Positions 267 through 20,718 are shown, counted from the stretch's first letter. The stretch is DNA of 32,000 bases from Flavobacteriaceae bacterium (GCA_965224465.1 OZ245049.1:390001-422000); one strand, 5' to 3'. Program-made: numbers and translations. Notes: generated by a model from the letters alone, not told the origin.

Positions 267-1680
267 GGTTGTGTAATTTAAACTCTGTCTGCTTGTTTTT
301 TTCTACGTTTTAAAATAGTTCGATTTTCTCTTCATAAGGCTGCTTTAAAAATCGAACTATTTTAAAATGAGCCCCAGCGGCTAGCGTCACGAATTGCTTC
401 CGTTTTTATGTAAATCCAACGTTATTCGATCTTCAAATTTAATATATAATTGTTGAATTGTCAAGCACCAATTATGTAAAGGGTTTGTCCATTTTTTTTC
501 GATATTTTTTGTTGCTAAGTAAACAAGCTTTAATAGTGCCATATCACTGGTAAAAGCCCCTTTTGTTTTAGTTACTTTTCTTACCTGTCTATGAAAACCT
601 TCTACTGCATTTGTTGTGTAAATTATTTTTCTGATAGGTTCTGTATACTGAAAAAACTGAGATAACTCTTCCCAATTACGGTTCCAACTTTCTAAAACTA
701 CAGGGTATTTTTCTCCCCATTTTTCTTCTAATTTCAATAACTCCAACTCAGCAATATCCTTATTAACAGCCTTGTAAACAAGCTTTAAATCTCGAATAAA
801 TTCTTTTTGGTCTTTGGAAGCTATATACTTTAAAGAATTACGAATTTGATGAACAATACACTTTTGAATTTGTGTTTTAGGAAATACACTCAAGATAGCT
901 TCTGAAAACCCTTTTAAGTTGTCTGTACAGGCAATTAGGATATCCTTAAGCCCTCTGTTATTAAGGTCTGTCAATACTTGAAGCCAAAAATTTGCGCCTT
1001 CACTTTCTGAAATATACATTCCTAAAACCTCTTTGATCCCTTCTTTATTTACTCCTAAAACATTGTAAAGTGCTTTGTGTTGTATTTTACCGTCTACTTT
1101 TACCTTGTAATGCATAGCGTCAAGCCAAACAATGCAGTACATCTGTTCTATTGGACGACTTTGCCATTGTTTTATATCTGGTATGATCTTATCTGTAATT
1201 TGACTTAAAACAGTGTGTGATATATCTGTATCATACATCTCTTTTATATGACCAGAAATATCGCGTAAGCTCATTCCTAGGCCGTATAATCCAATGATCT
1301 TATCTGATAAATTATCTGCTAAAATGGTTTGACGCTTTTTTATCAGAACAGGCTCGAAACTACTATTTCTATCCGCTGGCGTGCTTATTTCAAAACTACC
1401 AATACTAGTTTTAACAGTCTTTTTGCCCTTTCCATTACGTTTATTCCCTTTAGAACGTTCCTCTTCACTAAGGTGTGATTCCATTTCTGCTTCCAATGCT
1501 TTCTCAAGAAATTGTTTCATTAAAGGAGCAAAGGCACCTTCTTTTCCGAATAAACTTTTTCCTGATAATAATTGATCCAATGCCTTTTTTTCAATGTTGG
1601 CTAACTCGTCTTTTGTCATGTTTTCTGTTTGAATAAAGTTAATACTTTTTTTTATTCAGACAGAGTTGAGTTTACAGTCC
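267..1680 (-). mobile_element. IS256-family insertion sequence (about 1.4 kb)
   Basis: Single transposase ORF. Imperfect terminal inverted repeats: GGTTGTGTAATTTAAACTCTGTCTG at 267 versus the reverse complement GGACTGTAAACTCAACTCTGTCTG ending at 1680. The ends were placed where homology to the flanking paralogous genes stops. Confidence 0.8.
387..1619 (-). CDS. IS256-family (Mutator-type) transposase, 410 aa
   Basis: Length and sequence pattern typical of IS256/Transposase_mut proteins: N-terminal LSGKSLFGKEGAFAPLMKQFLEKALEAEMESHL, central WLDAMHYKV and C-terminal TTNAVEGFHRQVRKVTK. Confidence 0.9.
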   Translation of the reverse strand: MTKDELANIEKKALDQLLSGKSLFGKEGAFAPLMKQFLEKALEAEMESHLSEEERSKGNKRNGKGKKTVKTSIGSFEISTPADRNSSFEPVLIKKRQTILADNLSDKIIGLYGLGMSLRDISGHIKEMYDTDISHTVLSQITDKIIPDIKQWQSRPIEQMYCIVWLDAMHYKVKVDGKIQHKALYNVLGVNKEGIKEVLGMYISESEGANFWLQVLTDLNNRGLKDILIACTDNLKGFSEAILSVFPKTQIQKCIVHQIRNSLKYIASKDQKEFIRDLKLVYKAVNKDIAELELLKLEEKWGEKYPVVLESWNRNWEELSQFFQYTEPIRKIIYTTNAVEGFHRQVRKVTKTKGAFTSDMALLKLVYLATKNIEKKWTNPLHNWCLTIQQLYIKFEDRITLDLHKNGSNS

Positions 1681-2323
1681 CAGTTATCCTTAAAAACTTG
1701 CCATTTACGCCATCTATTCTGTAAACTTTAATGTCTTTAAGGTTATATTTTTCATTTCCATCTAATACAACTTGCCATTCTGGTTTTGCATTTGGGAATT
1801 CGTTTAAATTATTGTGTGTTAAATTAAACCCTGTAACCTGATAATTTTCAATGTCTTTTTTTGCAATTCTCTTTACTATTTCTATAGCTTCAGCCCAACA
1901 TATTTTATAGCCTTTTTCGTAGTCTATTACTTTCGTTATTTTTCCTTGTTCATTGTAATGAGTTTCTTTATTTATTTTAGAATTACCATTTTCATATTTA
2001 AATAAACTCCATCTTATTTTATTGTTTTTATACCTTATCCATTTAGAAATATTTATTTTTTTGTTTATATAGACATTTGTCACATCATTATCACCTAGAT
2101 TCAAATATTCATTTTTATAATTTTCATTATCAAGTAAAATTAAATCACCTTCTTTATTTTTTAGTTGCTTTTGTATGTTCTGATCAAGTACCAACTCCTC
2201 TTTAGAAATTTTAAAAACAGGATAATTATAATGGCAAGTATTATTATTAATTAAATATCCTTTAGGAACAGAGGAACAATTAGTAAAAAAAATACTTAAT
2301 AATAAAATATATAAATATTTCAT
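1652..2323 (-). CDS. putative immunity lipoprotein, paralog c of three; 3' end replaced by IS sequence
   Basis: Lipoprotein signal MKYLYILLLSIFFTNC. The C-terminal half is near-identical to 2396..3064 and 3137..3805. The last 12 or so codons (ITGTVNSTLSE) differ from the paralog tail (TTRIITTHH) because they read into the IS right end. Confidence 0.6.
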   Translation of the reverse strand: MKYLYILLLSIFFTNCSSVPKGYLINNNTCHYNYPVFKISKEELVLDQNIQKQLKNKEGDLILLDNENYKNEYLNLGDNDVTNVYINKKINISKWIRYKNNKIRWSLFKYENGNSKINKETHYNEQGKITKVIDYEKGYKICWAEAIEIVKRIAKKDIENYQVTGFNLTHNNLNEFPNAKPEWQVVLDGNEKYNLKDIKVYRIDGVNGKFLRITGTVNSTLSE

Positions 2324-2395: not shown

Positions 2396-3064
2396 TTAGT
2401 GGTGAGTTGTTATTATTCTAGTTGTCCTTAAAAACTTGCCATTTATGCCATCTATTCTGTAAACTTTAATATCTTTAATGTTATATTTTTCATTTCCATC
2501 TAATACAACTTGCCATTCTGGTTTTGCATTTGGGAATTCGTTTAAATTATTGTGTGTTAAATTAAACCCTGTAACCTGATACTTTTCAATGTCTTTTTTT
2601 GCAATTCTCTTTACTATTTCTATAGCTTCAGCCCAACATATTTTATAGCCTTTTTCGTAGTCTATTACTTTCGTTATTTTTCCTTGTTCATTGTAATCAA
2701 ATTCTTTGAATATATTTATATAACTATTCAAATATTTAAATTCAACCCATTTTATTTTCCCTAGATGGTCATATCTTATATATTTAGCTATGTTTATTTG
2801 TTTATTTGTTTGTTTATTTGTTATGTATTCATCTTTCGAATATCTAAATTCATTTTTAAAATATTTATTATCTGTCGTAACAGTATCTTCTTCCTTTTTT
2901 TTCAATTGATAAAGAATTTCGTTATTAAGTGTTAATTCTTCTTTATTAATTTTAAAAATGGGGTAATTATAATGGCAAGTATTATTATTAATTAAATATC
3001 CTTTAGGAACAGGGGAACAATTAGTAAAACAAATACTTAACAATAAAATATATAAATATTTCAT
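2396..3064 (-). CDS. putative immunity lipoprotein, paralog b
   Basis: Lipobox signal peptide. Lies in the tandem 741-bp unit downstream of the metallopeptidase-type effector. Confidence 0.6.
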   Translation of the reverse strand: MKYLYILLLSICFTNCSPVPKGYLINNNTCHYNYPIFKINKEELTLNNEILYQLKKKEEDTVTTDNKYFKNEFRYSKDEYITNKQTNKQINIAKYIRYDHLGKIKWVEFKYLNSYINIFKEFDYNEQGKITKVIDYEKGYKICWAEAIEIVKRIAKKDIEKYQVTGFNLTHNNLNEFPNAKPEWQVVLDGNEKYNIKDIKVYRIDGINGKFLRTTRIITTHH

Positions 3065-3136: not shown

Positions 3137-3805
3137 TTAGTGGTGAGTTGTTATTATTCTAGTTGTCCTTAAAAACTTGCCATTTACGCCATCTATTCTG
3201 TAAACTTTAATATCTTTAAGGTTATATTTTTCATTTCCATCTAATACAACTTGCCATTCTGGTTTTGCATTTGGGAATTCGTTTAAATTATTGTGTGTTA
3301 AATTAAACCCTGTAACCTGATACTTTTCAATGTCTTTTTTAGCAATTCTCTTTACTATTTCTATAGCTTCAGCCCAACATATTTTATAGCCTTTTTCGTA
3401 ATCTATTACTTTCGTTATTTTTCCTTGTTCATTGTAATGGGTTTCTTTGAAGATAGGTTTTGTGCCATTGATGTAAACAAAACTTACTCTTTTAATTGTT
3501 CTGTTTTTTCTATATAAAATCCATTTATCAATGCCTAATTGTTTGCTTGTTTGGTAATTTGCAATACTTCCACTAGATAAAACAGAAAATAGATTTTTAT
3601 AATTCTCATTGTCTGATATGACAATATCCCCGTTTTCGTCTTTTGATTGTTTTAAAATATTTGGATTAAGGACTAATTCTTCTTTAGTTATTTTAAAAAT
3701 AGGTTCGTTGTAATGACATGTATTATCATTTGCTAAATATTCTTTAGGAACAGAGAAACAATTAGTAAAACAAATACTTAACAATAAAATATATAAATAT
3801 TTCAT
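3137..3805 (-). CDS. putative immunity lipoprotein, paralog a (directly coupled to effector 3807..4946)
   Basis: Its start lies 1 nt after the effector stop. Lipobox signal MKYLYILLLSICFTNC. Confidence 0.6.
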   Translation of the reverse strand: MKYLYILLLSICFTNCFSVPKEYLANDNTCHYNEPIFKITKEELVLNPNILKQSKDENGDIVISDNENYKNLFSVLSSGSIANYQTSKQLGIDKWILYRKNRTIKRVSFVYINGTKPIFKETHYNEQGKITKVIDYEKGYKICWAEAIEIVKRIAKKDIEKYQVTGFNLTHNNLNEFPNAKPEWQVVLDGNEKYNLKDIKVYRIDGVNGKFLRTTRIITTHH

Positions 3806-3806
3806 A

Positions 3807-4946
3807 TTATTTTAATTTAGAATATTGTTGTAATTTTTCCCACTGCCATTTGTAGGTGTGTTTTTTATGATTATTATAATCCATATAATTGTCTGTTTTT
3901 GCGTCCTTAAATTTATGTATACTTTGAAAGGCATCCCTTAATCCTAAAGCGTGCATTATTTCGTGAATTATATTTTCTGATTTAATGTTTCCTTCAGGGT
4001 CTAATACCAAATAGGCGATTCCAGTACCTGCAGGAGATATACCTCCTGCAGCCTTAAAAGATCCCTCTTCTGGAATGTCTTTTTCATTGATACATTTTTG
4101 ATTGATAAAATAAATAGTTAATTTGTTTGTATCTTTATTGTGTTTATTATTAATATAAGATAAAATGGTGCTTATTTTACTCCTTTCAATATAGTTTCCA
4201 ATTCTATTGTCAATATTTTTTTTTAGAAAACCATGTTTTTTAAAATTTTCTAAATGTTCACTAATATCGACCATCGTTGGATTATTATTAGTGATATTGA
4301 TATCAATTAAAGCAGGATTTAAACCTTTTTTAAGGTCTTTTTCTAAATCTAATTTGTTGATTTCTTTACCTAAAGCGAATTCATCTTTTTCATCTCCTTG
4401 AATTTCGACAAAACACCATTCAAGGTCAATAGTTTTGGGTTTAGGGTAAAAGATATTAATTGCTCCAACAATTAATTCATCATCCGCTTTTATTAAGATT
4501 TGAGCAGAAGTTACATTGTTGTTTTTACAGGTTATTTTTACTTTTTTAGCATCTTTTAAGTTCTTTGGTTCAAAAGTAAAATCGGCATGAGGTTCAAAAC
4601 TTATAGTTTCATAGTCATCTGCTTTTCCTTTTTTCGTCCAATCAAGTTCCAATTCGACTGTTTGGTCTTTTCTTAAACTTAACCAAGAAGGAATGTATTG
4701 CTCTCCTCGTATTTTTTCTGAGAGCGGCTTGTATTCTTTTTTAAGTTTTTCGTAGTCCGATACAACAATTTTTTCTTTAGGGATCCTATCAAAACCGAAA
4801 ACGCCCCTCATAATATCTTTATTTCTTGCTATAAATTCGATTTTAAAAGGTTTTTTAGTAGCAATTGGCTGTAAATATCTAGTTAATGTTTCTCCGTCTT
4901 CAAATGTTATTCTAAAACCTGTTTTTTTCATTTTTTGAGTTCCCAT
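3807..4946 (-). CDS. T6SS-associated effector with a C-terminal metzincin/M43-like zinc metallopeptidase domain (379 aa)
   Basis: HEIMHALGLRD (HExxHxxGxxD) at about nt 3941-3970, followed by DNYMDY, which resembles the N[FY]MDY Met-turn block of the M43 pappalysin/cytophagalysin family. TAATG stop-start overlap with the upstream hcp copy. Confidence 0.6.
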   Translation of the reverse strand: MGTQKMKKTGFRITFEDGETLTRYLQPIATKKPFKIEFIARNKDIMRGVFGFDRIPKEKIVVSDYEKLKKEYKPLSEKIRGEQYIPSWLSLRKDQTVELELDWTKKGKADDYETISFEPHADFTFEPKNLKDAKKVKITCKNNNVTSAQILIKADDELIVGAINIFYPKPKTIDLEWCFVEIQGDEKDEFALGKEINKLDLEKDLKKGLNPALIDINITNNNPTMVDISEHLENFKKHGFLKKNIDNRIGNYIERSKISTILSYINNKHNKDTNKLTIYFINQKCINEKDIPEEGSFKAAGGISPAGTGIAYLVLDPEGNIKSENIIHEIMHALGLRDAFQSIHKFKDAKTDNYMDYNNHKKHTYKWQWEKLQQYSKLK

Positions 4947-5584
4947 TACTTTTTCACTTTTTGTTTAATCACTTTTAACTCAATCTGTTCTAAATCGTTA
5001 CTTATTTCGATATTACTAAGGGTATCATTAGGTAGCAAATTACCATTGTACTCAAAATCATACTTAGCATCATCTAAATTAATTGTTATAAAACCTCCTC
5101 TACGGTTTTTCGTTTCTATATTTAATAGTATAATATCATTATCTTTATAATCTTGAATTTCTTCATTATCGGAATTCGTTAAATAATACCTTATTATTTC
5201 TTTCTCATCATCTCTCTCTAACACCGTTGGTTCAACTTCTATAAAAGGATCTTCAAACACCCAATTTTCTATTTTTTTAACATCTTTTATTTTAACAGCA
5301 CCACACGTTATCGTTAAATTAATGTGTAAGGGCAAATTGTCTTGATTGTCAAATTCTTCTGTAAGACCTACAATATAGGCTTTATGGAATTCTACTTTGT
5401 ACAAGGTTTTAAACTCATCTCTGTCATAAAATATTAATTCACCGCTAAAACTAGCATTTGGTGAAAACATATAGTGATACAAATCGCTATCAAACCCAGT
5501 AGATTCAAACATTAAATGGAATGGGCTTTTACGCGTTGTGGTCGTAGGGTTTCCCGTAATATCTTTTAGTTTGTATAATACCAA
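4946..5584 (-). CDS. tssD: 5'-truncated TssD/Hcp copy with C-terminal extension type B (212-aa ORF; only a junction-created TTG start)
   Basis: nt 5221-5578 are more than 99% identical to the intact hcp (12224-12581). It lacks the first 22 codons, and its C-terminal 70 or so aa differ from the other two copies. Confidence 0.7.
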   Translation of the reverse strand: MVLYKLKDITGNPTTTTRKSPFHLMFESTGFDSDLYHYMFSPNASFSGELIFYDRDEFKTLYKVEFHKAYIVGLTEEFDNQDNLPLHINLTITCGAVKIKDVKKIENWVFEDPFIEVEPTVLERDDEKEIIRYYLTNSDNEEIQDYKDNDIILLNIETKNRRGGFITINLDDAKYDFEYNGNLLPNDTLSNIEISNDLEQIELKVIKQKVKK

Positions 5585-5811
5585 TTACAATCCAAAATAA
5601 CCGATATAAATAGTTTATTTTACGTTCTAGCGTTGTTAAAAAACAGAACGATAGCTATCCTTAGATTTTACGCCTAGCTAGAACAAAAAATTAATTTCAT
5701 TTCTAAACCGTCACTTGAAAATGTATTTGGTATTAATACAGCTACCAACAGCAATCTGTAGATAAAATATTTACTTCAAGTTAACACAGAATCTTAGATA
5801 TTAACTGGACT
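5579..5811. repeat. R element copy 1 (long form)
   Basis: About 98% identical to 9852..10084. The core AATTACAATCCAAAATAAC...GTTGTTAAAAAACAGAACGAT is shared with 13326..13403 and 17769..17929. Confidence 0.85.
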
Positions 5812-6417
5812 TTATTCATACTTAGTTTTTCGTAAATCTTTATACTTACAGTTTTTTGTTCTGTAACACTCAATAACATCACTATTTATATTTTTATATA
5901 AAATTTCTAATAAGCCTTCTTTTAGTTCGAAAAAATTCCAATTTGCTGGAATATCAATATAATTTGCTTCTTTGTCATTTTTCATTGCGAAAATTAGAAC
6001 ACGTATTCCTAAATAACCTTTTGTTCGATTTCCTTGAGCGTTCTCTAAAAACGGCTTAATGGACAAGCTGTCATTTGTACACTTTATATTGTGTACGTAA
6101 AAAATACATTTTTTTTTATAGGTATAACTTGTTGTCTTTACTAATAATTCCTTTTCGTTTAAATTAAAAATGTAGCTTATAAAATTAGAACTACTATTAG
6201 TTAACTCATCGGAATATTTAGTACCTGTATGTTTTACATCTTTTAATAATTTTAATACGCTTTTAAAATCAATTTTGGTTTGTAATCCTTTTTTTTTTAT
6301 ACGTGTACTATCAGAAACAACAATTTTAATTATTGGAATTTCTTTATTTGTTTTAATAGTTTTTTTAAAACAAACTAAAAATGGTATAATAAATAATATT
6401 ATAAAATAGTTTTTCAT
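5812..6417 (-). CDS. putative immunity lipoprotein for the orphan Cys/His toxin CTD (homolog of 10085..10711)
   Basis: Signal peptide. Shares a conserved C-terminal block with 10085..10711: IKPFLENA.G..T.GY...RVLIFAMKNDKEAN.IDIP...LLEILYKNI.SDVIEC.RTK.CKYKDLRKTK.E. Confidence 0.55.
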   Translation of the reverse strand: MKNYFIILFIIPFLVCFKKTIKTNKEIPIIKIVVSDSTRIKKKGLQTKIDFKSVLKLLKDVKHTGTKYSDELTNSSSNFISYIFNLNEKELLVKTTSYTYKKKCIFYVHNIKCTNDSLSIKPFLENAQGNRTKGYLGIRVLIFAMKNDKEANYIDIPANWNFFELKEGLLEILYKNINSDVIECYRTKNCKYKDLRKTKYE

Positions 6418-6419
6418 AA

Positions 6420-7178
6420 TTATTTCTTTTTATTTCTAAGTTGATAGATTTCTAATTTCATAGGGTATTTATCTCTCCAAGCGTAAACTGTTCCTAAAAA
6501 ATAATTTTCAAGCTGCTTACATGTTCTTGGTATTACACCAACTATTTGGTCAATAAATTGAAATTCAAAAGTGTCATCTTTTTTATTTACAATAACTGTA
6601 AAAGAATGGTAATCATCGTTATAAGCACCAATAAAAACATAATTGCCATTATCTGGACACTTGCTTTTCATATAATCAATTGGACTGTCTTTAAAGCCTT
6701 TTAAAGCAGTATCAGTATTTCCGGGTTGCCCACTACTTGTTAAAACTTCCTTATTGTAAATATCTACTACAGTAAATGTTTTTGATGGTTCTGCGTAAGT
6801 AGCTGCTATTGTTTTGTTTCTTACACCGTTAGTTGTAGATTCTCCTGCTTTTTCATAGTCTTTTGGAGTGTCTCTACCTACTATTTGGTCTTTTCCTAAA
6901 ATTAAACTTGAAGGATTGTCTAAAAGTTTATAAATTATGTGTTTATGTGTATCCGTACAATGATGATAATCAGAGTATTTATTAGCATTTCGCTGTTTAT
7001 TATAATTTGCTATTGCATACACATTAATTTCTTCAATTTTCTCTTTACTAAACTCCCATTCGTTAAGGGTTTCGTAAACTATTTTCATACACCCACAAAA
7101 CAAGTTTTCATAATCCCCAGTTGAATACCCCTCTTCATTATCATTAGCTAAAAAACGAATATAGAATGCTACACTTTA
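6420..7178 (-). pseudogene. orphan toxin module: Cys/His CTD paralog plus a 75-nt remnant of the conserved effector N-terminal domain (ORF-track ORF 6420..7103)
   Basis: nt 7104-7178 match 11405-11480, which encodes ...SVAFYIRFLANDNEEGYSTGDYENLFCGC. Homology stops 14 nt after the stop of the upstream immunity gene. There is no N-terminal domain or native start. Confidence 0.7.
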
Positions 7179-7192
7179 TTCATGCTAAAACC

Positions 7193-8023
7193 CTAAATTC
7201 TTTTTAGAACATATTTTAAAGAATCTTTTTTTTCGAGAAATAGATTGTTGTTTTTGATATAGAAGTACCATTCTTCTTCGTTTAACCTGATTAAATACTT
7301 TTTGTTACTTTCACTTTTTGGATTAGCTAATGTGCTATAGTTGGTATTCGAGTACGTTTTAAAAATATCAGAACCAATGATTTTTTTTTCTAGGATGTCA
7401 AAATAAATTTTAGATTCTAGTAAATTGTTACAGGAGTCATATAGATCAAAAGTTTTTTTGAAAAAATAAACATCTCTTTGCAATCGATAATAAAAAAGAT
7501 CATTAAATATAAAACTCTTTAAATTAGAACAATAATGGATACTATCTTTACTTGTAATAATACTAAATTGATTTTTCCTCTTTACTAAAAAAATAGAATC
7601 TTTATTCTGGTAATGATGAGTATTAAATTTGGTTAGATAATAAGTACTGTCATTAATCGCAACTACTCGTAATTTTCTATAATCAAATTTTGAACTATTA
7701 GCATAAATCTTTTTTTGTTTCCAATTACTAATATGAATAAATTCGTATGGATAACTTTCGTTATTTCTAATTGAAGTATCATCAAATCCTTTTAAATTTA
7801 AATTATAAACAAAGTCGACAGGCATCCAAAAGGAATTGTCTATTGATTTTTTATTATAAACAAAATCGGAGGAGTCCAAACTCATAAAACGGGTGGTTTT
7901 AAGAGTGTCTTGTTTTGTTTTTGTGTTTAATTCTTTTTTAAATTGTTGGTCTTTAGATTTTTTTTTTGAATTACAAAAAACTAAAGAAAAGCAAAGTAAA
8001 ATGATAAAAAATATTTTTTTCAT
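7193..8023 (-). CDS. putative immunity lipoprotein for the Tae4-like effector (276 aa)
   Basis: Lipoprotein signal MKKIFFIILLCFSLVFC. Starts 6 nt downstream of the effector stop. Confidence 0.5.
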   Translation of the reverse strand: MKKIFFIILLCFSLVFCNSKKKSKDQQFKKELNTKTKQDTLKTTRFMSLDSSDFVYNKKSIDNSFWMPVDFVYNLNLKGFDDTSIRNNESYPYEFIHISNWKQKKIYANSSKFDYRKLRVVAINDSTYYLTKFNTHHYQNKDSIFLVKRKNQFSIITSKDSIHYCSNLKSFIFNDLFYYRLQRDVYFFKKTFDLYDSCNNLLESKIYFDILEKKIIGSDIFKTYSNTNYSTLANPKSESNKKYLIRLNEEEWYFYIKNNNLFLEKKDSLKYVLKRI

Positions 8024-8029
8024 ATCTAT

Positions 8030-9223
8030 TTATTTCAATTCCCAATACCATATTTCATCAGCTCCATAGTAACCCGATCCTGTCTGACCGTGGTAAATAA
8101 CATCTATGTGACTAACACCTCCATCACTTTTATCCCATAAAAAAACAATCCCATTGGCAGAATTTGGATTGAATTCACTAGTGTTTTTAAATTTTTCAGG
8201 TATAAAAACATTATTATGTAACCAATCAGCTAAACCTTTGGAGGATCTGGCAAATCCATCTCTTGTTTTGTTTATACTAGGGTAAGAAAACAAATTAAAA
8301 TTAGAATTAGTTAATCCATAAGAAAGACGAATAGCACATTGATTATAATACTTATCATGATCAATAGTTACATCTTGTCTGTGAGCCCCAACTTTATCGG
8401 TAGGGTATTTATGTATTAATTCACCTAAACTTGGAAGTCCTCCTTTATTTTTAAAACTCCAATTAAACTTGTTTTTTTCTTCTTTTAATCTTTCTTTTTC
8501 TAATTTTAAACTAAAAAACTTTTTATTTTCAAGGGATTTATACTCACCGTCTGATACAAGTATTGTTCTGTTCTTTTCAAATTCAGAATTTACTTCTCCT
8601 AAAAACTCTCCATCTGAATTACTATAAAAATATATTTTTGATTTTATAACAATAGTCTCAACCTTAAAACACCCACAAAACAAGTTATCATAATCCCCAG
8701 TTGAATACCCCTCTTCATTATCATTAGCTAAAAAACGAATATAGAATGCTACACTTTCTTCTGTTGTAATATCAACTTCCACTTCTATTTCAGAACCAAA
8801 TTTAGCTAAAATATTATCACTAAACGTTGTTTCAGATTTTTGCTTAATTTTTGCTGTAACCCCTTTAACTTCTACAAATTTGTCTTTTTCCTGAGATATT
8901 TCTATTTCTATATACCCATCGTCGTCTTCCCATTGTTCATCAGGACCTCCTTTTTTAATTAGAAAAGGTATTACTGGTTTTTGTAGTGCGGTTAGTAATG
9001 TAGTTATAGTTTCGTTTTTTTTACTGTCGTTAGTTTGGGTTAAGAGGTCTACAAAAACATGTTTATCGTTTTCATCCTTTTCTAAAGGGAGTTTATCTTT
9101 TTCAATATTGTATCCTGTCGTATCTCTTAATTCTACTAGAGGTATAAATTCTGTCCATTCTAAGCCTTCTCCTGTGTATGAATTACTAGGGTTTCCTGTT
9201 TCACTTACTGTTATGGTTCCCAT
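8030..9223 (-). CDS. T6SS-associated effector: conserved N-terminal domain plus a Tae4-like peptidoglycan amidase CTD (397 aa)
   Basis: YYNQCAIRLSYGLTN and GIVFLWDKSDGGVSHIDVIY resemble the catalytic Cys and His blocks of Tae4 (NACPIRMSYVLN ... GHVTLW). The N-terminal 190 aa are near-identical to 10713..11951. Confidence 0.65.
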   Translation of the reverse strand: MGTITVSETGNPSNSYTGEGLEWTEFIPLVELRDTTGYNIEKDKLPLEKDENDKHVFVDLLTQTNDSKKNETITTLLTALQKPVIPFLIKKGGPDEQWEDDDGYIEIEISQEKDKFVEVKGVTAKIKQKSETTFSDNILAKFGSEIEVEVDITTEESVAFYIRFLANDNEEGYSTGDYDNLFCGCFKVETIVIKSKIYFYSNSDGEFLGEVNSEFEKNRTILVSDGEYKSLENKKFFSLKLEKERLKEEKNKFNWSFKNKGGLPSLGELIHKYPTDKVGAHRQDVTIDHDKYYNQCAIRLSYGLTNSNFNLFSYPSINKTRDGFARSSKGLADWLHNNVFIPEKFKNTSEFNPNSANGIVFLWDKSDGGVSHIDVIYHGQTGSGYYGADEIWYWELK

Positions 9224-9224
9224 A

Positions 9225-9857
9225 CTAACTATTTTGTTTTTTAGAGTTTAATTCTATTTTCATAGTATCTGAAGTTATATTAAAACCATTTATTTTATTG
9301 TCTTCAAGTAATTGTCCTTGGTGTTCCAGTGGTGCATTAATTGAACTTAAATCTATATCTGTTTGTTTACCTGTCATATCTTGTGTTTTTAGGATTAAAA
9401 ACACTTTTACACCTTTTTGTATCTTAGACACTCTTTCTCCTTGACTGTCTTGGAAATAGGTTTCTAAGACAGCTCCTTCTCCACTATTTTCTAACACCGT
9501 TGGTTCAACTTCTATAAAAGGATCCTCAAACACCCAATTTTCTATTTTTTTAACATCTTTTATTTTAACAGCTCCACACGTTATCGCTAAATTAATGTGT
9601 AAGGGCAAATTGTCTTGATTGTCAAATTCTTCTGTAAGACCTACAATATAGGCTTTATGGAATTCTACTTTGTACAAGGTTTTAAACTCATCTCTGTCAT
9701 AAAATATTAATTCACCGCTAAAACTAGCATTTGGTGAAAACATATAGTGATACAAATCGCTATCAAACCCAGTAGATTCAAACATTAAATGGAATGGGCT
9801 TTTACGCGTTGTGGTCGTAGGGTTTCCCGTAATATCTTTTAGTTTGTATAATACCAA
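9225..9857 (-). CDS. tssD: 5'-truncated TssD/Hcp copy with C-terminal extension type A (210-aa ORF, TTG start only)
   Basis: Near-identical to codons 23-231 of 11953..12648. The junction with the R element is at the same nucleotide as in 4946..5584. Confidence 0.7.
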   Translation of the reverse strand: MVLYKLKDITGNPTTTTRKSPFHLMFESTGFDSDLYHYMFSPNASFSGELIFYDRDEFKTLYKVEFHKAYIVGLTEEFDNQDNLPLHINLAITCGAVKIKDVKKIENWVFEDPFIEVEPTVLENSGEGAVLETYFQDSQGERVSKIQKGVKVFLILKTQDMTGKQTDIDLSSINAPLEHQGQLLEDNKINGFNITSDTMKIELNSKKQNS

Positions 9858-10084
9858 TTACAATCCAAAATAACCGATATAAATAGTTTATTTTACGTTC
9901 TAGCGTTGTTAAAAAACAGAACGATAGCTATCCTTAGATTTTACGCCTAGCTAGAACAAAAAATTAATTTCATTTCTAAACCGTCACTTGAAAATGTATT
10001 TGGTATTAATACAGCTACCAACAGCAATCTGCAGATAAAATATTTACTTCAAGTTAACACAGAATCTTAGACATTAACTGGACT
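9852..10084. repeat. R element copy 2 (long form)
   Basis: See copy 1. It fills the whole immunity-to-hcp intergenic space. Confidence 0.85.
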
Positions 10085-10711
10085 TTATTCAGACTTAGTT
10101 TTTCGTAAATCTTTATACTTACATTTTTTTGTTCTGTTACACTCAATAACATCACTATCAATATTTTTATATAGGATTTCTAATAATTCTTTTCTTAATT
10201 TAAGAGGATTCATTTTTTCTGGTATATCAATAAAATTTGCTTCTTTATCGTTTTTCATAGCGAAAATTAGAACACGATTTTGTGTATAACCTCGTGTAGT
10301 TTTCCCAAAGGCGTTTTCTAAAAAAGGCTTTATGCTTATGTCGTTTTTAATGTGTTTTAAATTATGTACATAAAATTTTAAGTTATTTTTGTATTCATAA
10401 CTGATTGTTTTTATTACAAACTTTCGATTATTAAGTAGAAAAACAGAATCTAAAGTACGTGCTCTATCAAACATCCAATCCTTATTTTTTTTTCCAACAT
10501 TTTTAACATTTTTAATATTAGATAATAAGTTATTAAAATTTATTGCAGTTTGTAGGTGTTTTTTCTTTATAACTTTTATAGAGTCTAAAGTTAAATTATT
10601 AAAAGAAGTATTAGAATTACTCTTATCAAATATAATTTTATTATTTGGTTTGGTTCCTTTACAACTAGACGTCAGTAATAGGATAAATAATACTAAAAAA
10701 TAACTTTTCAT
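10085..10711 (-). CDS. putative immunity lipoprotein for effector 10713..11951 (208 aa)
   Basis: Lipobox LLLTSSC. The start is 1 nt after the effector stop (TAA A ATG). Confidence 0.55.
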   Translation of the reverse strand: MKSYFLVLFILLLTSSCKGTKPNNKIIFDKSNSNTSFNNLTLDSIKVIKKKHLQTAINFNNLLSNIKNVKNVGKKNKDWMFDRARTLDSVFLLNNRKFVIKTISYEYKNNLKFYVHNLKHIKNDISIKPFLENAFGKTTRGYTQNRVLIFAMKNDKEANFIDIPEKMNPLKLRKELLEILYKNIDSDVIECNRTKKCKYKDLRKTKSE

Positions 10712-10712
10712 T

Positions 10713-11951
10713 TTACTTCGTTTTATTTCTTAATTGATACAGTTCTAATTTCATAGGGAAATTAGAAGCGTAATCATCTATATTAATTAAAAATTTTAAA
10801 TTTTCTAATTTTTCACCTGTATAATATTGAACACCTACCATTTGGTCAATAAATTGAAATTCAAAAGTGTCATCTTTTTTATTTACAATAACTGTAAAAG
10901 AATGGAAATCATCGTCATAAGCGCCAATAAAAACATAATTGCCATTATCTGGACACTTGCTTTTCATATAATCAATTGGACTGTTTTTAAAGCCTTTTAA
11001 AGCAGTATCAGTATTTCCGGGTTGCCCACTACTTGTTAAAACTTCCTTATTGTAAATATCTACAACAGTAAATGTTTTTGATGGTTCTGCGTAAGTTGCT
11101 GCTATTGTTTTGTTTCTTACACCGTTAGTTGTAGATTCTCCTGCTTTAACAAAATCATTTGGTGTCATTCTATTCGCAGAAGGCAAATGATTTTGGTCTT
11201 TTCCAAAATTTAAAACACTAGGACTATCTAAAAGCATATAAATTATATGCTTGTGCGTATCTGTACAATGATGATATCTATTTGCATCTCCGCCTCCGCT
11301 GTATTTTGCACAATTAGCTCTTGCGTACACTTTAATTTCTTCAATTTTCTCTTTACTAAACTCCCATTCGTTAGGGGTTTCGTAAACTATTTTCATACAC
11401 CCACAAAACAAGTTTTCATAATCCCCTGTTGAATACCCCTCTTCATTATCATTAGCTAAAAAACGAATATAGAATGCTACACTTTCTTCTGTTGTAATAT
11501 CCACTTCCACTTCTATTTCAGAACCAAATTTAGCTAAAATCTTATCACTAAACGTTGTTTCAGATTTTTGCTTAATTTTTGCTGTAACCCCTTTAACTTC
11601 TACAAATTTGTCTTTTTCCTGAGATATTTCTATTTCTATATACCCATCGTCGTCTTCCCATTGTTCATCAGGACCTCCTTTTTTAATTAGAAAAGGAATT
11701 ACTGGTTTTTGTAGTGCGGTTACTAATGTAGTTATAGTTTCGTTTTTTTTACTGTCGTTAGTTTGGGTTAAGAGGTCTACAAAAACATGTTTATCGTTTT
11801 CATCCTTTTCTAAAGGGAGTTTATCTTTTTCAATATTGTATCCTGTCGTATCTCTTAATTCTACTAGAGGTATAAATTCTGTCCATTCTAAGCCTTCTCC
11901 TGTGTATGAATTACTAGGGTTTCCTGTTTCACTTACTGTTATGGTTCCCAT
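10713..11951 (-). CDS. T6SS-associated effector: conserved N-terminal domain plus an unclassified Cys/His CTD (412 aa)
   Basis: Starts 1 nt after the hcp stop (TAG T ATG). Shares its N-terminal domain with 8030..9223 up to the LFCGC junction. The CTD has the conserved blocks YHHCTDTHKHIIY, DD[FY]HSFTVIV and FIDQ. Confidence 0.65.
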   Translation of the reverse strand: MGTITVSETGNPSNSYTGEGLEWTEFIPLVELRDTTGYNIEKDKLPLEKDENDKHVFVDLLTQTNDSKKNETITTLVTALQKPVIPFLIKKGGPDEQWEDDDGYIEIEISQEKDKFVEVKGVTAKIKQKSETTFSDKILAKFGSEIEVEVDITTEESVAFYIRFLANDNEEGYSTGDYENLFCGCMKIVYETPNEWEFSKEKIEEIKVYARANCAKYSGGGDANRYHHCTDTHKHIIYMLLDSPSVLNFGKDQNHLPSANRMTPNDFVKAGESTTNGVRNKTIAATYAEPSKTFTVVDIYNKEVLTSSGQPGNTDTALKGFKNSPIDYMKSKCPDNGNYVFIGAYDDDFHSFTVIVNKKDDTFEFQFIDQMVGVQYYTGEKLENLKFLINIDDYASNFPMKLELYQLRNKTK

Positions 11952-11952
11952 A

Positions 11953-12648
11953 CTAACTATTTTGTTTTTTAGAGTTTAATTCTATTTTCATAGTATCTGA
12001 AGTTATATTAAAACCATTTATTTTATTGTCTTCAAGTAATTGTCCTTGGTGTTCCAGTGGTGCATTAATTGAACTTAAATCTATATCTGTTTGTTTACCT
12101 GTCATATCTTGTGTTTTTAGGATTAAAAACACTTTTACACCTTTTTGTATCTTAGACACTCTTTCTCCTTGACTGTCTTGGAAATAGGTTTCTAAGACAG
12201 CTCCTTCTCCACTATTTTCTAACACCGTTGGTTCAACTTCTATAAAAGGATCCTCAAACACCCAATTTTCTATTTTTTTAACATCTTTTATTTTAACAGC
12301 TCCACACGTTATCGCTAAATTAATGTGTAAGGGTAAATTGTCTTGATTGTCAAATTCTTCTGTAAGACCTACAATATAGGCTTTATGGAATTCTACTTTG
12401 TACAAGGTTTTAAACTCATCTCTGTCATAAAATATTAATTCACCGCTAAAACTAGCATTTGGTGAAAACATATAGTGATACAAATCGCTATCAAACCCAG
12501 TAGATTCAAACATTAAATGGAATGGGCTTTTACGCGTTGTGGTCGTAGGGTTTCCCGTAATATCTTTTAGTTTGTATAAGGTGTATTCTGCTCTTAATAA
12601 CGTTCTTTCTTTTCCATCTATAATGGCGATGCCTTTAAAACTACTCAT
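11953..12648 (-). CDS. tssD: intact type VI secretion tube protein TssD/Hcp (Bacteroidota type) with an approximately 90-aa C-terminal extension (231 aa)
   Basis: Matches the Bacteroidota TssD pattern: F..GKE...L...Y.L......G.P......FESTG...L..YMF......G.IF.D......K.EF..AYIV...E.F......PL.I.L.I....VKI......NW. It is the only copy with an ATG and the first beta-strand region. Confidence 0.8.
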   Translation of the reverse strand: MSSFKGIAIIDGKERTLLRAEYTLYKLKDITGNPTTTTRKSPFHLMFESTGFDSDLYHYMFSPNASFSGELIFYDRDEFKTLYKVEFHKAYIVGLTEEFDNQDNLPLHINLAITCGAVKIKDVKKIENWVFEDPFIEVEPTVLENSGEGAVLETYFQDSQGERVSKIQKGVKVFLILKTQDMTGKQTDIDLSSINAPLEHQGQLLEDNKINGFNITSDTMKIELNSKKQNS

Positions 12649-13310: not shown

Positions 13311-13325
13311 AAAGGAGGTTTACGT

Positions 13326-13403
13326 ACAATACCAATTACAATCCAAAATAACATATATAAATAGGTTGTTTTGCGTGCTGTCGTTGTTAAAAAACAGAAC
13401 GAT
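13326..13403. repeat. R element copy 3 (core only)
   Basis: AATACCAATTACAATCCAAAATAACATATATAAATAGGTTGTTTTGCGTGCTGTCGTTGTTAAAAAACAGAACGAT. Closest to copy 4. Confidence 0.8.
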
Positions 13404-13779: not shown

Positions 13780-15609
13780 TTATTCATTCAATTCATCTTC
13801 AGTTACAATTCTAATATTCCCCGCGAATTTAGCAATAATATTCTTTTTAGTTACAGCTTCAGGAAATGCCATTGCTAACACTTTTTTAGGTCTAGACATT
13901 GCTACATAAATTAATCTTTTCTTCTCACTAGGAAAGGTATTGTCAGAATTACAAATGTCTTCAAAAAGTATATTGCTAGCGTGTTTTCTATCGTTAAAGA
14001 AAATTAATACTGAATCTAAAGTTTTACCTTTCACTTGGTGAATAGTAGTAATTGGAATGTTAGATTCCGAATACGATTTTTTAAAATGAATGTTAACAGA
14101 TTCATTTAGTGTTATATCTTTATTGAAAAATTTAGATTTTCTATTTCTTAGATTAAAATTCACGTCATAATGTAAGCCCAATTTTTCTTTCATAAAAATT
14201 TGAGTTTGATTTGTCCAATCTGCAACTGTTAATTCAAAACTTGGTAGCTCAATTAGAATCTGAAATAAAAGTGAATTAAAAAGATGGTCTTCTTTTGAAT
14301 TTCTTTCAATTTCCTTTAACTGATGATAGTCACTTTCTGGATTTAATAACTTTATAGAAATAGTACGTATTTCGTTTATGGAATTTTTGATATCATTACC
14401 CTTAAAACGATTTTTTGCCGTAATAATTTCTTTTGGCAACTCAATACCCCAAGGTCTTTCTTCTGTTGTTTTTCCTAATAATTTATTCTTTAATGAGTTT
14501 CCTCTAACTACAATATTGTTCTTTTCAAAATTGTTGGTCGAGCAAAGTTCTTCATAGTGTTTAATAATTGATTGAAGATTGTTCTCAGAATATTTATAAA
14601 TAATAATTGAATTGTCTTTTGTAGGATTGCCAACAGAACTTATTTTTGCGTCATTAGCTTTTCTTAGTATAGAAAAAATGTCAATAATATTTTGAGGTGA
14701 CCGCCTGTTGTCTGTTAGGTCAAATGAATTCCAACTATCGTCTTCATTATACTTTTTTAAAAATTCATTTGGATTTGCATCTCTCCATTGATAGAGGCTT
14801 TGATAAGGGTCGCCAATTAATTCTATGTTTTTTAATCCTTGCTTAGACAATTCTTCAAAGATTGCGTGTTGAATTAAAGAATTATCTTGAGCCTCATCAA
14901 TTATGATAAAAGGAAACCTTAAAGATAACCATTGACAAATTTTCGGTTTTTTCCTTAAAATATGGAGAGCTATATATGCAGAATCTCCTGTTGAGATTAA
15001 GCCTTTAGTAAATTGTGTATTCTTAATTAATTTGCAATAATTTTTAAACTTATCTAGTTCAACTTTATCTGGTGATGGTTGATTACCTTTCACAGAATAA
15101 CTTCCATCTTGTTCAATTCTAATTTCGCTAGGTGGATATAAATGATAGATACTTCTATTATTTTTTGCTTTATATGCATCAAAGTTTAAAGGTCTTTTTA
15201 AACCTTCTTTTGTTTTTCCATTTTTGTCAATGTAATTGATTTTCCACATTTCATCTAGAATATTTGTGTGGTCAAGGATTTTAGGTCTTTTAAACTTTCT
15301 ATCTAATATATTATAAAAAGGAAGTGTAATAAATTTATTTATAAAACTATCAATAGTGGAAACGTGATTAGGAAAGCTTAAAATTTTCCCGCTCAGTTTT
15401 GAATAAGATTCGTTTATTTCATCCTTTGCTGAGTTCGTAAAAGAAAGACAAGCAATACCTGAATATGAATTGACCTCTTTTAATTGCTGTAATTCTATTA
15501 TTTTTTGTGCAATTGTAGTTGTTTTACCGCTTCCAGGACAGGCGTTTAATATGATTTTACCTCTTGCTTGAAGATATGCCGTTCTTTCTTCATTTAAGTC
15601 ATAAATCAT
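13780..15609 (-). CDS. gajB: UvrD/PcrA/Rep-like SF1 helicase, GajB-like (609 aa)
   Basis: Helicase motifs CPGSGKTTT (I), IIIDEAQDNS (II), GDPYQSLYQWRDA (III), NRRSP (IV), TIHQVKGKTLDSV (V) and YVAMSRPKKVL (VI). ATGA start-stop overlap with the upstream OLD-family gene. Confidence 0.8.
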   Translation of the reverse strand: MIYDLNEERTAYLQARGKIILNACPGSGKTTTIAQKIIELQQLKEVNSYSGIACLSFTNSAKDEINESYSKLSGKILSFPNHVSTIDSFINKFITLPFYNILDRKFKRPKILDHTNILDEMWKINYIDKNGKTKEGLKRPLNFDAYKAKNNRSIYHLYPPSEIRIEQDGSYSVKGNQPSPDKVELDKFKNYCKLIKNTQFTKGLISTGDSAYIALHILRKKPKICQWLSLRFPFIIIDEAQDNSLIQHAIFEELSKQGLKNIELIGDPYQSLYQWRDANPNEFLKKYNEDDSWNSFDLTDNRRSPQNIIDIFSILRKANDAKISSVGNPTKDNSIIIYKYSENNLQSIIKHYEELCSTNNFEKNNIVVRGNSLKNKLLGKTTEERPWGIELPKEIITAKNRFKGNDIKNSINEIRTISIKLLNPESDYHQLKEIERNSKEDHLFNSLLFQILIELPSFELTVADWTNQTQIFMKEKLGLHYDVNFNLRNRKSKFFNKDITLNESVNIHFKKSYSESNIPITTIHQVKGKTLDSVLIFFNDRKHASNILFEDICNSDNTFPSEKKRLIYVAMSRPKKVLAMAFPEAVTKKNIIAKFAGNIRIVTEDELNE

Positions 15610-17537
15610 ATTCCTTGTCTTAAATGAGTTAATCCTTCTTGTATGTACGGAGGGATTACGAAAGATACTTTTGCGTTTTCTAAGTTTTCAAGAATATGTA
15701 TTGAAAAATCTTGAGCAAAGTCAGCTTTTGATGGCAGGGCTTTCCATAGCAAAATTCCTACTTTACGTTTTTCAGAATCAGACATAATATCATTATCAAA
15801 TTTTTGAGTGTATTTAATGATTTTATCAATTTTATCTAAATAATTTTGATTGACATAGTTAAAAAGAAAGTTGTCAAGTAGTTCTGTGCGATTATCCTTA
15901 ATGTTGTGAATGGCCAATTCATACTCTAAAGTTTTATAAGAGTGTAATATCTTTATGTTATCAGCATTATTTGCAACAGAATTTAGATTAGCAATTCTTG
16001 TTACCGCAGTTCCATTTTGAATGTTATAGTCTAATTCATCTAATATAGAATAATCTGTTTCTAGTAATTTATTAAAACTATAGATTGATTTTTTAGAATC
16101 CGTAAATCGGTCGTCATCTGTTAGGACTGTAATGGGCTTGTTAATTCTTTTGCTTTCTTCTTGGTTGTTGAATAGATATAAAAAAGGATAGAATGACGTA
16201 CCTTTTACATTTACGACTTCAACTCTATAATCTTCAAGTTGATAATCGTCTAAGCTTGTAAAAGATGAAAGTAAAAGTTCTTCTGAAATTCCTTCTACAA
16301 ACAATACTGATTTTGCGTAAAAAAGTTGAGACTTTGTTACGTCAATATAACGCTCAAGTTTTTTTTGACTTAATTGATAATCAATGTCTCTTAATGGAAT
16401 ATTCTTAGTTGTATCTTGAATTATATTTTCAGCTATTCTATTTTGAAATTGATGTTCTAGTTTATAAGCTTTTTTATTATCTAATAAAATTAGATTTTTT
16501 AAGGGTACTTTTGAAGTTAGAGTAGGAGAATGGGTAGTTATGAATAACTGACTATTATCTGAAGTGTTAGCACTTGTAAGAAAGTTATATAAACTTAACT
16601 GAAGTTGTGGATGCAAATGAGCTTCAGGTTCTTCAATTAAAAGGGCGTAATGAGGAATTTCGTTATCTTCAATTTGTTCTTTAACATCACCCAATACTAT
16701 TGCAATGTAAATGAGATTATTTAAACCTAAGCTATTTTGCCATAAATGGAATCCTTCTTCATTTAAAGTTTCTCTGTTATGAGGTAAAAAAGGTTTTATT
16801 GCATTGACAATATATTCTGTTTTTGATTCTTCTATTCTAAGACCAATTTTGTTGTCTAGAAATTTCTTAAAAATCCCTTCTAAATTTTGGTTTACACCAT
16901 CTCTAGTACTTATGACTTCATCTCTTTCAAGTAGCTGAGAATTTGCATCTTTCATTATTTGTTCAATCTTAGCTTCCGTTTCATTTCTTTTCACGAATCT
17001 TTTGATTACTCTTCCCAAAACATTTCCTCGAGTACTTAATAAATCACGAGTACTATCTCTTAAAGCTCCTAAATAATAATGTTGAAATAATTCAAATGTT
17101 TTGTAGTCTGCTTTTTGACCATCAATATCTCCCGTATTGTATGAAAATTGAGGATATTTTCCGTCTTTCTCCTCATAACTGATTGTTATTTTAGCATAAT
17201 CTTCTGCCGTGTCATCTGGGTCGATTACCATATATTCATAAAAAGCTCCTTTCTGCGAAATTGTAAGTCCTTTAAAAATATATGTTATTGTAATTAGTGT
17301 GGCTTTTTCAATATGGATTCCAGAGTCAGTTGTCACTTTTTTTTGGTAAAAATCATCTGATGATACTGATATTTCTCTTATCGGTTCACCAATATTGTAT
17401 AGTAATCTTATTGCATCAATTATGGCAGATTTACAACTTCCATTTTCTCCAATAATTATATTGATATTAGGGTCAAACTCTGTTTCTATAATTTCAACTC
17501 CTTTGTAATTTTCTACTTTAATATATGATAAGTACAT
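15606..17537 (-). CDS. gajA: OLD-family ATP-dependent endonuclease (ABC-type ATPase plus TOPRIM), GajA-like (643 aa)
   Basis: P-loop GENGSCKS, signature-like NSLGLNNL, Walker B/D-loop ALLIEEPEAHLHPQLQ and H-loop ITTHSP. TOPRIM Glu in VLFVEGISEE and DxD in VLTDDDR. Class 2 OLD gene order, with a UvrD helicase immediately downstream. Confidence 0.8.
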   Translation of the reverse strand: MYLSYIKVENYKGVEIIETEFDPNINIIIGENGSCKSAIIDAIRLLYNIGEPIREISVSSDDFYQKKVTTDSGIHIEKATLITITYIFKGLTISQKGAFYEYMVIDPDDTAEDYAKITISYEEKDGKYPQFSYNTGDIDGQKADYKTFELFQHYYLGALRDSTRDLLSTRGNVLGRVIKRFVKRNETEAKIEQIMKDANSQLLERDEVISTRDGVNQNLEGIFKKFLDNKIGLRIEESKTEYIVNAIKPFLPHNRETLNEEGFHLWQNSLGLNNLIYIAIVLGDVKEQIEDNEIPHYALLIEEPEAHLHPQLQLSLYNFLTSANTSDNSQLFITTHSPTLTSKVPLKNLILLDNKKAYKLEHQFQNRIAENIIQDTTKNIPLRDIDYQLSQKKLERYIDVTKSQLFYAKSVLFVEGISEELLLSSFTSLDDYQLEDYRVEVVNVKGTSFYPFLYLFNNQEESKRINKPITVLTDDDRFTDSKKSIYSFNKLLETDYSILDELDYNIQNGTAVTRIANLNSVANNADNIKILHSYKTLEYELAIHNIKDNRTELLDNFLFNYVNQNYLDKIDKIIKYTQKFDNDIMSDSEKRKVGILLWKALPSKADFAQDFSIHILENLENAKVSFVIPPYIQEGLTHLRQGI

Positions 17538-17768
17538 TCTTTCGTTTTTGGAGGTTGATTTGGTATTACAGCTAACACCCGTATATCATCAATAAACTTC
17601 CAAAACTTGACGTTATTTCCGTTATGTCTATAATAGTTTCGGGGTATGTGTTGTTTTTTTGTTAAATGTATTCAAATTTCATGAATTTTCAAGCGGTTCG
17701 CGATTTTTTTTATTGTTAATTTCAATGGTCTTGGTGTCTATCTCTGTGGTTTCTGGAGAGGCATGGTC

Positions 17769-17929
17769 TAATAAATTACAATCCAAAATAACATATATAA
17801 ATAGGTTGTTTTACATTCTAGCGTTGTTAAAAAAACAGAGCAATAGCTATCTATCCTTCCATTTTTTTACCTAACTATTACAAAAAATAATCACATTTCT
17901 AAACCGTCACTTGGAAATGTATTGGGTAT
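17769..17929. repeat. R element copy 4 (core plus distal block)
   Basis: The core is near-identical to copy 3. The distal block CATTTCTAAACCGTCACTTGGAAATGTATTGGGTAT matches copies 1 and 2. Confidence 0.8.
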
Positions 17930-20673: not shown

Positions 20674-20718
20674 TCATCTCTATTATTTTTAACCCAAGCT
20701 ATAGTGCTCTCTTTTAAA

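Follow-up and report, generated by a model that had tools for sequence, protein, structure and literature searches.

An Hcp C-terminal extension that co-varies with a short effector leader in a Flavobacteriaceae type VI secretion cassette array

The window, a 32,000-nucleotide (nt) stretch of DNA from a Flavobacteriaceae bacterium (GCA_965224465.1, OZ245049.1:390001-422000), contains an array of genes headed by hcp1, which encodes a tube protein (TssD, or Hcp) of the subtype iii type VI secretion system (T6SSiii) that continues past the usual Hcp fold into an additional C-terminal domain, here called the extension. In related loci from several genomes, the type of extension co-varies with the first 25-35 amino acids (aa) of the effector encoded immediately downstream, a segment here called the leader, and the extension may be a docking module for it.

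Organization of the hcp cassette array

All relevant genes of the array, from hcp1 through a transposase gene, lie on the minus strand (Table 1). In the direction of transcription, hcp1 is followed by the effector gene eff1, its candidate immunity gene imm1 and an intergenic block. Next come a truncated hcp copy (hcp2') joined to the same type of extension (A), eff2, imm2, a displaced toxin tip (CTD1') and imm1', and then the same intergenic block, a second truncated copy (hcp3') joined to a different extension (B), eff3, three lipoprotein paralogues and a transposase gene of the IS256 type. No T6SS core genes are found within the 32-kb window, and an Rfam scan of the window gave no match. The best reading of the window is an orphan-cassette array that serves as an auxiliary T6SSiii cargo island.

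Residues 3-130 of hcp1 match the Pfam TssD family (PF17642) over profile positions 2-128 of 128 (E=8.7e-25). The top Foldseek matches of an hcp1 model are 6bdc (Flavobacterium johnsoniae Hcp1), 8gra and 7yw0 (Bacteroides fragilis Hcp5) at E~1e-4, the core of this model having a predicted local distance difference test (pLDDT) score of ~30-57 on a shallow alignment. Identity between copies 1 and 3 stops exactly at the end of the linker that joins core and extension, and this linker appears from the aligned copies to be the upstream recombination boundary of the extension module. The distance from the hcp stop codon to the effector start is 1 nt in copies 1 and 2, and the genes overlap by 1 nt in copy 3. 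A preliminary description of this DNA had reported three hcp copies with a common linker and an extra C-terminal part. All three do possess these features, but only hcp1 is full length: hcp2' and hcp3' lack codons 1-23, their homology to hcp1 beginning at codon 24 (TTATACAAACTA) without an ATG, and the Pfam TssD match of hcp3' begins only at profile position 27. The sequence 5' of codon 24 in these two copies is unrelated to hcp1 and common to both.

Copies 1 and 2 represent a single duplication, in which 11397-12579 corresponds to 8669-9851 over 1,183 base pairs (bp) at 99.4% identity, from hcp codon 24 through the extension and up to effector codon ~185. Thus, the window contains two independent extension/effector modules rather than three, and the identical extensions and shared effector N-termini that had been noted at 11953 and 9225, while real, are not independent pairs. 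By themselves, these two modules display no more association than linkage would give. The match of hcp3' to hcp1 (12218-12579) extends over 362 bp at 98.9% identity, and nothing else of hcp1 is present in copy 3.

A dispersed repeat of ~160 bp abuts hcp codon 24 in both truncated copies (9846-10006 and 5573-5733). Further copies reside at 17766-17929, at 13324-13403 (partial) and in two loci of a near-identical strain from an ENA assembly (L018:1573-1735 and L025 ~2335-2495). The element contains an inverted repeat (GTTCTAGCTAGGCG...CGCTAGAAC) and may resemble a miniature inverted-repeat transposable element, which may or may not include a promoter. In the near-identical strain, the repeat separates hcp codons 1-24 from codons 24-end and is bordered at each side by TTATAC, from which it follows that the truncations in the window probably started as an insertion of the repeat into hcp. 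The hcp genes of L018 and L025 contain a 148-bp insert; at such a length, translational bypass or an intron was judged implausible as its explanation, repeat insertion being the better fit. An IS256-type transposase flanks the cassettes of L025 as well, and in L018 (2387-4744) two IS30-type (HTH_38) transposase genes split the effector behind a B'-type extension after residue 11.

The effectors of the first two cassettes share 183 of their first 190 residues, and their identity ends at the motif LFCGC. The toxin domain of eff1 (the C-terminal domain CTD1) has no Pfam, NCBIfam or PDB match, and residues 292-393 of eff2 match Tae4 (Pfam PF14113, E=2e-6) by a narrow margin (28.3 bits against a cutoff of 27). 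For the N-terminal domain NTD-A (eff1 residues 1-190), a search of 5.8 billion proteins returned no homologue, nor did it return the effectors of the window itself. CTD1' consists of the last ~27 codons of NTD-A, LFCGC and a CTD1 homologue; its region is 85.6% identical to 10683-11489, and 7089-7181 is 97.8% identical to 8669-8761. The divergence at LFCGC, together with the retention of the NTD-A end and the motif in CTD1', points to nested junctions, as in orphan toxin arrays. LFCGC appears to behave as a toxin-tip demarcation motif in the array, and the 190-aa identity of eff1 and eff2 would be the product of a separate, recent recombination at this junction. There are thus two apparent swap units, one nested in the other: the extension with effector and immunity genes, which had been proposed previously as the swap unit, and the toxin tip with its immunity gene. 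A lipoprotein-like signal sequence heads every candidate immunity protein. The paralogues that follow eff3 (222-223 aa) have nearly identical C-terminal halves and variable N-terminal halves, and may represent an expansion of an immunity gene family.

Table 1. Features of the array and of the genes immediately upstream, in window coordinates
Feature	Position	Strand	Description
hcp1, whole gene	11953..12648	-	231 aa; T6SSiii tssD; stop codon 11953-11955
hcp1 core, aa 1-131	12256..12648	-	Sole full-length TssD/Hcp fold in the window
Linker EDPFIEVEPTVLE, aa 132-144	12217..12255	-	Identical in all three copies
Extension A copy 1, aa 145-231 (87 aa)	11956..12216	-	Predicted C-terminal beta-sandwich domain
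eff1 leader, aa 1-30 (MGTITVSETGNPSNSYTGEGLEW...), type A	11862..11951	-	Strand-turn-strand pattern
eff1, 412 aa	10713..11951	-	Leader, NTD-A (to LFCGC, aa 181-185) and toxin domain CTD1
imm1, candidate immunity lipoprotein	10085..10711	-	N-terminus MKSYFLVLFILLLTSSCKG; directly after eff1
Intergenic block of cassettes 2 and 3	9846..10084	-	hcp-proximal ~160 bp (9846-10006) is the dispersed repeat
hcp2', codons 24-144, 5'-truncated core	9489..9851	-	No ATG; within the 1,183-bp duplication
Extension A copy 2	9228..9488	-	Protein sequence identical to copy 1
eff2, 397 aa	8030..9223	-	eff1-type leader and NTD-A, then Tae4-like amidase domain
imm2, candidate eff2 immunity lipoprotein	7193..8023	-	
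CTD1', displaced orphan toxin tip	6420..7181	-	Without leader and without start
imm1', imm1 homologue	5812..6417	-	Directly after CTD1'
hcp3', 5'-truncated core	5216..5578	-	Cut at the same nucleotide as hcp2'
Extension B	4949..5215	-	Same domain family as A; 23-25% identity to A
eff3, 379 aa	3807..4946	-	Leader, 'GFD' domain, HExxH metallopeptidase-like domain
eff3 leader, aa 1-31, type B	4854-4946	-	
Three tandem paralogous lipoprotein genes, candidate eff3 immunity	3137..3805, 2396..3064, 1652..2323	-	
IS256-family (Mutator-type) transposase	387..1619	-	Array end; Pfam PF00872, E=5e-98
GajB	13780..15609	-	PADLOC E=1e-103; overlaps GajA by 4 nt
GajA	15606..17537	-	PADLOC E=2.7e-285

The extension domain and its co-variation with the effector leader

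Modelled alone in AlphaFold2 with nine homologues, extension A is predicted to form an all-beta sandwich (pLDDT 88.7, predicted template modelling score 0.77), and on the evidence of this model it is an autonomous, self-folding domain. Extensions A and B are homologous, with a pairwise z of 10.5 against shuffled sequences, and a profile from which both were left out gives E=2e-15 for A and E=9e-20 for B. The preliminary description was therefore right to treat the extension at 4946 as different, but the likeness goes beyond a similar length and alternating pattern. An exhaustive profile search yielded 374 cluster representatives of the family at E<=1e-3, and 277 at E<=1e-10. Position and companion domains were counted for the best 148 of the 374 representatives: the domain ends no more than five residues from the C-terminus in 141, and it is accompanied by TssD in 78, PAAR in two, DUF4280 in two and a Tox-PAAR-like domain in one. 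Its presence on PAAR-type proteins fits a built-in adaptor and suggests that the module is used at the spike in addition to the tube. Neither Pfam nor NCBIfam contains a model for the extension, and it matches no toxin family; significant relatives in the PDB were found neither by sequence nor by Foldseek, the best match being to Wzt carbohydrate-binding domains (E=0.059). A literature search found no published description of the domain, which is not proof of absence.

The PAAR, DUF4280 and PAAR-like carriers with a C-terminal extension are small proteins, and the domain is sometimes present in tandem (P0148, P0161, P0121, P0022). Another, minority class of proteins (P0023, P0031, P0035, P0037, P0045) displays a conserved start motif, hhLhxKxxLPxEPxYNG, then one, two or three extension domains and, in some members, toxin domains, and may constitute another leader type or a free-standing adaptor. 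On a Bernardetia plasmid (NZ_CP147019), three tandem cassettes of extended tssD, effector and immunity genes lie within a complete T6SSiii locus, beside two short tssD genes; short Hcps that lack the extension occur in related genomes (L014-L016, Bernardetia). The same plasmid (L027, NZ_CP147019.1, 3700-16300) contains a DUF6531/Rhs effector downstream of vgrG, after which comes a classical orphan array made up of Rhs core-fragment, AHH toxin and Imm43/Imm26 immunity genes.

The relationship between extension and effector was surveyed in 16 non-redundant pairs that represent four unrelated Hcp core lineages. These came from the window, dolphin-oral Flavobacteriia metagenomes, the ENA assembly of the near-identical strain, Mesonia algae and a relative, a marine JGI contig and Bernardetia plasmids, and association was assessed by Mantel tests on similarity matrices. 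The similarity of extensions correlates with that of effector residues 1-35 (r=0.67, p~5e-5), and the corresponding values are r=0.05 (p=0.31) for extension against Hcp core, r=0.19 (p=0.04) for extension against effector body and r=0.29 (p=0.008) for leader against effector body. Thus, on this small scale, the type of extension predicts the start of the neighboring effector independently of the core. The preliminary description had expected the extension to track the effector N-terminus, as it does, but had assigned the partner role to the ~190-aa NTD; homologous bodies with different leaders place it instead in the leader.

From these comparisons, the co-varying unit is the extension plus the leader, bordered on one side by the PTVLE linker and on the other by a point 25-38 codons into the effector open reading frame (ORF). 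In all leaders, a segment of alternating hydrophobicity is followed by a turn and then by another alternating segment, a pattern of strand-turn-strand type that is read from sequence and would be compatible with a beta hairpin. The N-terminus of eff3, which had been described as unrelated to that of eff1 and eff2, does differ from it but begins in this common manner.

Individual loci illustrate how the unit is distributed. Wherever the type D extension occurs, the effector that follows has a leader of the pattern SFExGRGNTMRIxFPxV; this is so in three loci of the dolphin clade and in two of Mesonia type, whose core is unrelated to that of the dolphin-oral Flavobacteriia (normalised similarity 0.10-0.18), and type D leaders head at least four unrelated toxin bodies. 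A single body also occurs with differing extension and leader, as in eff3 (B) versus the L011 effector (D) and in L021 (D) versus L025 (G). From residue ~32 the body of eff3 is 60% identical to the L011 effector, whereas the first ~31 residues differ, and the L011 effector is followed by lipoproteins homologous to the candidate immunity set of eff3. Within the source genome, cores that are ~97-100% alike (one or two residues differ) are joined to extensions of four or more types (A, B, and the types found in P0002 and P0010), and the core of a fifth extended Hcp (P0005) is more divergent. Bernardetia has four extension types on cores that are 90-100% identical, each with a different leader. 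Across 12 Flavobacteriia loci, the spacing between hcp and effector ranges from -8 to +12 nt.

Natural Hcp-toxin fusions occur in the same clade. In L013 (an intact 587-aa ORF), L017 and P0013, the same Hcp core and linker are followed by an acidic stretch and then by an eff3-type 'GFDW' domain and HExxH toxin, and the eff3 body is homologous to the toxins of L013 and L017. These fusions contain neither extension nor leader. Because the two are dropped together, the pair stands where a covalent link would be, and this provides the strongest argument, if an indirect one, for contact between extension and leader.

A docking model and alternative readings

We lean, if only slightly, toward the view that the extension is a docking module for the short N-terminal leader of the effector. 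In such a model, hcp1 would be a specialised carrier Hcp composed of a TssD tube fold, a conserved linker and a C-terminal beta-sandwich. The extension would bind the leader, so that a single Hcp protomer would hold a large toxin (379-412 aa in the window, as many as 761 aa in other loci) in a non-covalent counterpart of an Hcp-toxin fusion, and the carrier protomer would presumably join ordinary short Hcp in the tube as part of mixed rings. Specificity would reside in the extension/leader pair, such that a single invariant Hcp core could serve many toxins. The hcp2' and hcp3' cassettes would then act as orphan modules, their ~360 bp of 99% identical core being available for recombination with hcp1, which could bring extension B, eff3 and its immunity genes behind an intact start, and the second junction, LFCGC, would swap toxin tips along with immunity genes. 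The type A leader of eff2 could be served by intact hcp1, and no intact type B carrier for eff3 is present in the window. A broader proposal, which strikes us as plausible yet a little short of an even chance, is that these loci represent an undescribed, portable address system of Bacteroidota T6SSiii. Here, a dock on Hcp or PAAR-type proteins (at least 374 clusters) would capture a ~30-aa hairpin tag, the types of dock and tag rather than the lumen would decide which toxin rides which carrier, and cassettes would be swappable via the invariant core.

Several observations weigh against docking. The extension and leader adjoin in the DNA, and inheritance as a block could yield the correlation. 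The Mantel signal comes mostly from the D group plus three close pairs (B/B' and C/C' among them). Four loci (W1, L024, B27b, L028) share an A-like leader motif, Y-E-[ST]-G-N-x-S-N-S, yet their extensions are no more alike than background, and the extensions of L006 and L008 are 89% similar while their leaders resemble each other only weakly, at the level of a motif. Spacing between hcp and effector reaches 82 nt in Bernardetia, and two of the three hcp copies in the window cannot make a normal Hcp. Finally, some proteins have the extension in cis, preceded by an N-terminal motif and followed by toxin domains (M23 peptidase and lysozyme in P0035, DUF6402 in P0045), which suggests that in this setting it can act simply as a spacer. 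Three further ideas were considered and dropped. An A-like extension superfamily paired with the A-like leader motif was looked for among the survey loci and was not supported. Mimicry of a missing Hcp N-terminal hairpin by the leader finds no echo in comparisons of leaders with the N-terminus of their own Hcp (z<1 in 12/12 loci), and the frame of the effector varies too much between loci (+1, -1, 8-nt overlaps) for a programmed frameshift or readthrough that would fuse Hcp and effector.

The most direct challenge is that the correlation reflects linkage alone. The extension and leader would then be parts of a contiguous ~360-nt block between two recombination hot spots. The extension would have some other function, whether as a spacer, as a module for stacking or for the tube end, or in binding a carbohydrate or target, and the effector would be recognized elsewhere, for example by the Hcp lumen, as happens in B. 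fragilis and Pseudomonas. The adjacency of the two segments, the lack of extension clustering in the A-like leader group, the apparent use of the extension as an in-cis spacer in P0035, P0045 and P0023, and the weak Foldseek matches to Wzt domains are all consistent with this reading, as is the established lumen loading of effector N-terminal regions (PMC13035841, PMC13323088). Core and extension, and likewise leader and body, are equally contiguous, yet their correlations fall far below that of extension and leader. The downstream breakpoint falls inside the effector ORF rather than at a gene boundary in five or more independent comparisons. Furthermore, the Hcp core is invariant across extension types, such that the lumen cannot explain the diversity of leaders, and the natural fusions lose extension and leader jointly. 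We therefore consider linkage alone unlikely, though it deserves to be taken seriously.

Two other readings concern the history of the locus. It is conceivable, but on the whole doubtful, that hcp2' and hcp3' are pseudogenes that arose when the ~160-bp repeat inserted at codon 24 and rearrangement followed, that the array is a graveyard of modules kept only for its immunity genes, and that the pairing of extension B with eff3 is a relic; this is compatible with docking for hcp1 and eff1. Both truncations fall at the identical nucleotide, against the repeat, which in the near-identical strain lies within hcp between two TTATAC sequences. The array also contains the displaced CTD1' tip, insertion sequence elements occur in the window, and an IS30 element disrupts the L018 effector. 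Decay of this kind sits less easily with the intact ORFs of eff2, eff3 and all immunity genes, with the hcp fragments, whose 98.9-99.4% identity to hcp1 suggests recent exchange or gene conversion, and with the type A leader of eff2, which the intact hcp1 extension would serve. Gene fission is far less probable still. Under this scenario, an ancestral fusion of Hcp, domain and toxin would have split within a domain, the extension and leader now reassembling one fold by strand complementation. Overlapping or abutting stop and start codons, the resemblance of leaders to beta hairpins and the presence of Hcp-toxin fusions in the same clade are all in keeping with it. However, the extension alone is predicted with confidence to be a complete sandwich, it occurs by itself at the C-terminal end of PAAR proteins and as tandem copies, neither piece is present in the known fusions, and the junction frames vary between loci.

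Known cargo systems and the wider neighborhood

The layout of the array has parallels in Rhs and CdiA loci, where a full-length gene is followed by 5'-truncated copies with a conserved junction, alternative toxin tips and immunity genes. In the window, intact hcp1 is followed by copies that begin at codon 24 and share 362-1,183 bp with it (98.9-99.4% identity), and by displaced CTD1' and imm1'. The array differs from those of Rhs and CdiA in having the Hcp core as its recombination handle and a nested pair of junctions, at the PTVLE linker and at LFCGC.

Certain PAAR proteins possess a transthyretin-like C-terminal adaptor extension that recruits a cognate effector. VgrG, too, has C-terminal adaptor extensions, transthyretin-like domains among them, by which cognate effectors are recruited (Flaugnatti et al. 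and Bondage et al., as cited in PMC13323088 and PMC13402684). Like these adaptors, the extension described here is a small beta-sandwich, as predicted, on a structural T6SS protein that is encoded beside its cargo, and it is found on PAAR, DUF4280 and PAAR-like proteins as well. It differs in fold, none of the 50 Foldseek PDB matches listed being transthyretin-like, and in its carrier, which is here the tube protein and not the spike. Specialised (evolved) Hcp effectors, or Hcp-ET (Ma et al. 2017, as cited in PMC13323088 and PMC13035841), offer a second comparison, in that cargo would here too be borne on the Hcp C-terminus and direct Hcp-metallopeptidase fusions exist in the same clade (L013, L017, P0013). 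In contrast to Hcp-ET, the array encodes its toxins as polypeptides separate from Hcp, the extension itself not being a toxin; a covalent toxin is found in L013 and L017 rather than in the array.

The closest precedent is the GA3 T6SSiii of B. fragilis, whose cargo depends on minor Hcps specific to the individual effectors (PMC13402684, PMC13213661). There, Hcp2 and Hcp3 form a lock-and-key arrangement in which an N-terminal antiparallel beta pair of the V1 effector co-evolves with the hypervariable lumen face of Hcp3 (PMC13035841). Structures reported in 2026 show that cargo is selected via the Hcp lumen. In recent work, large cargo is enclosed by two Hcp rings (PMC13323088), a result that weakens the earlier suggestion that the size of the effectors argues against lumen loading. 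Both GA3 and the present system are T6SSiii in which effector-dedicated Hcp genes adjoin and co-segregate with their cargo and effectors have an N-terminal module. They differ in the site of variation: the lumen of the ~130-aa core, within a heterohexamer, is variable in GA3, whereas here the core is invariant (97-100% alike across types A, B, B' and G, and 90-100% in Bernardetia) and all variation resides in the C-terminal domain appended to it. The stretch of the effector that co-varies is also shorter, at ~30 aa compared with ~70-80 aa in GA3. As for the N-terminal beta pair of GA3 effectors, the leaders display an alternating-hydrophobic/turn/alternating arrangement and co-vary with the extension, a likeness at the level of sequence pattern only.

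Directly upstream of hcp1 is a complete pair of Gabija anti-phage defence genes (13780-17537, minus strand; Table 1). Farther away, at 20704-30043 on the plus strand, are, as judged by eye, a gene for a 660-aa, translation-factor-like GTPase and an RND-efflux-like gene trio (1229, 406 and 586 aa), which seem unrelated to the array.

The selection of cargo by Hcp is an active question. If the proposed docking of leader to extension is correct, a docking domain and a tag would explain how one conserved tube protein carries many toxins whose size exceeds what one ring could hold, and would also account for the cassette-wise evolution of these loci and for the role of a widespread, unannotated domain on TssD and PAAR proteins. 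It would furnish a rule for finding effectors, namely the gene after any TssD with an extension, recognizable by its leader, and so compact a tag might conceivably be used to load engineered cargo.

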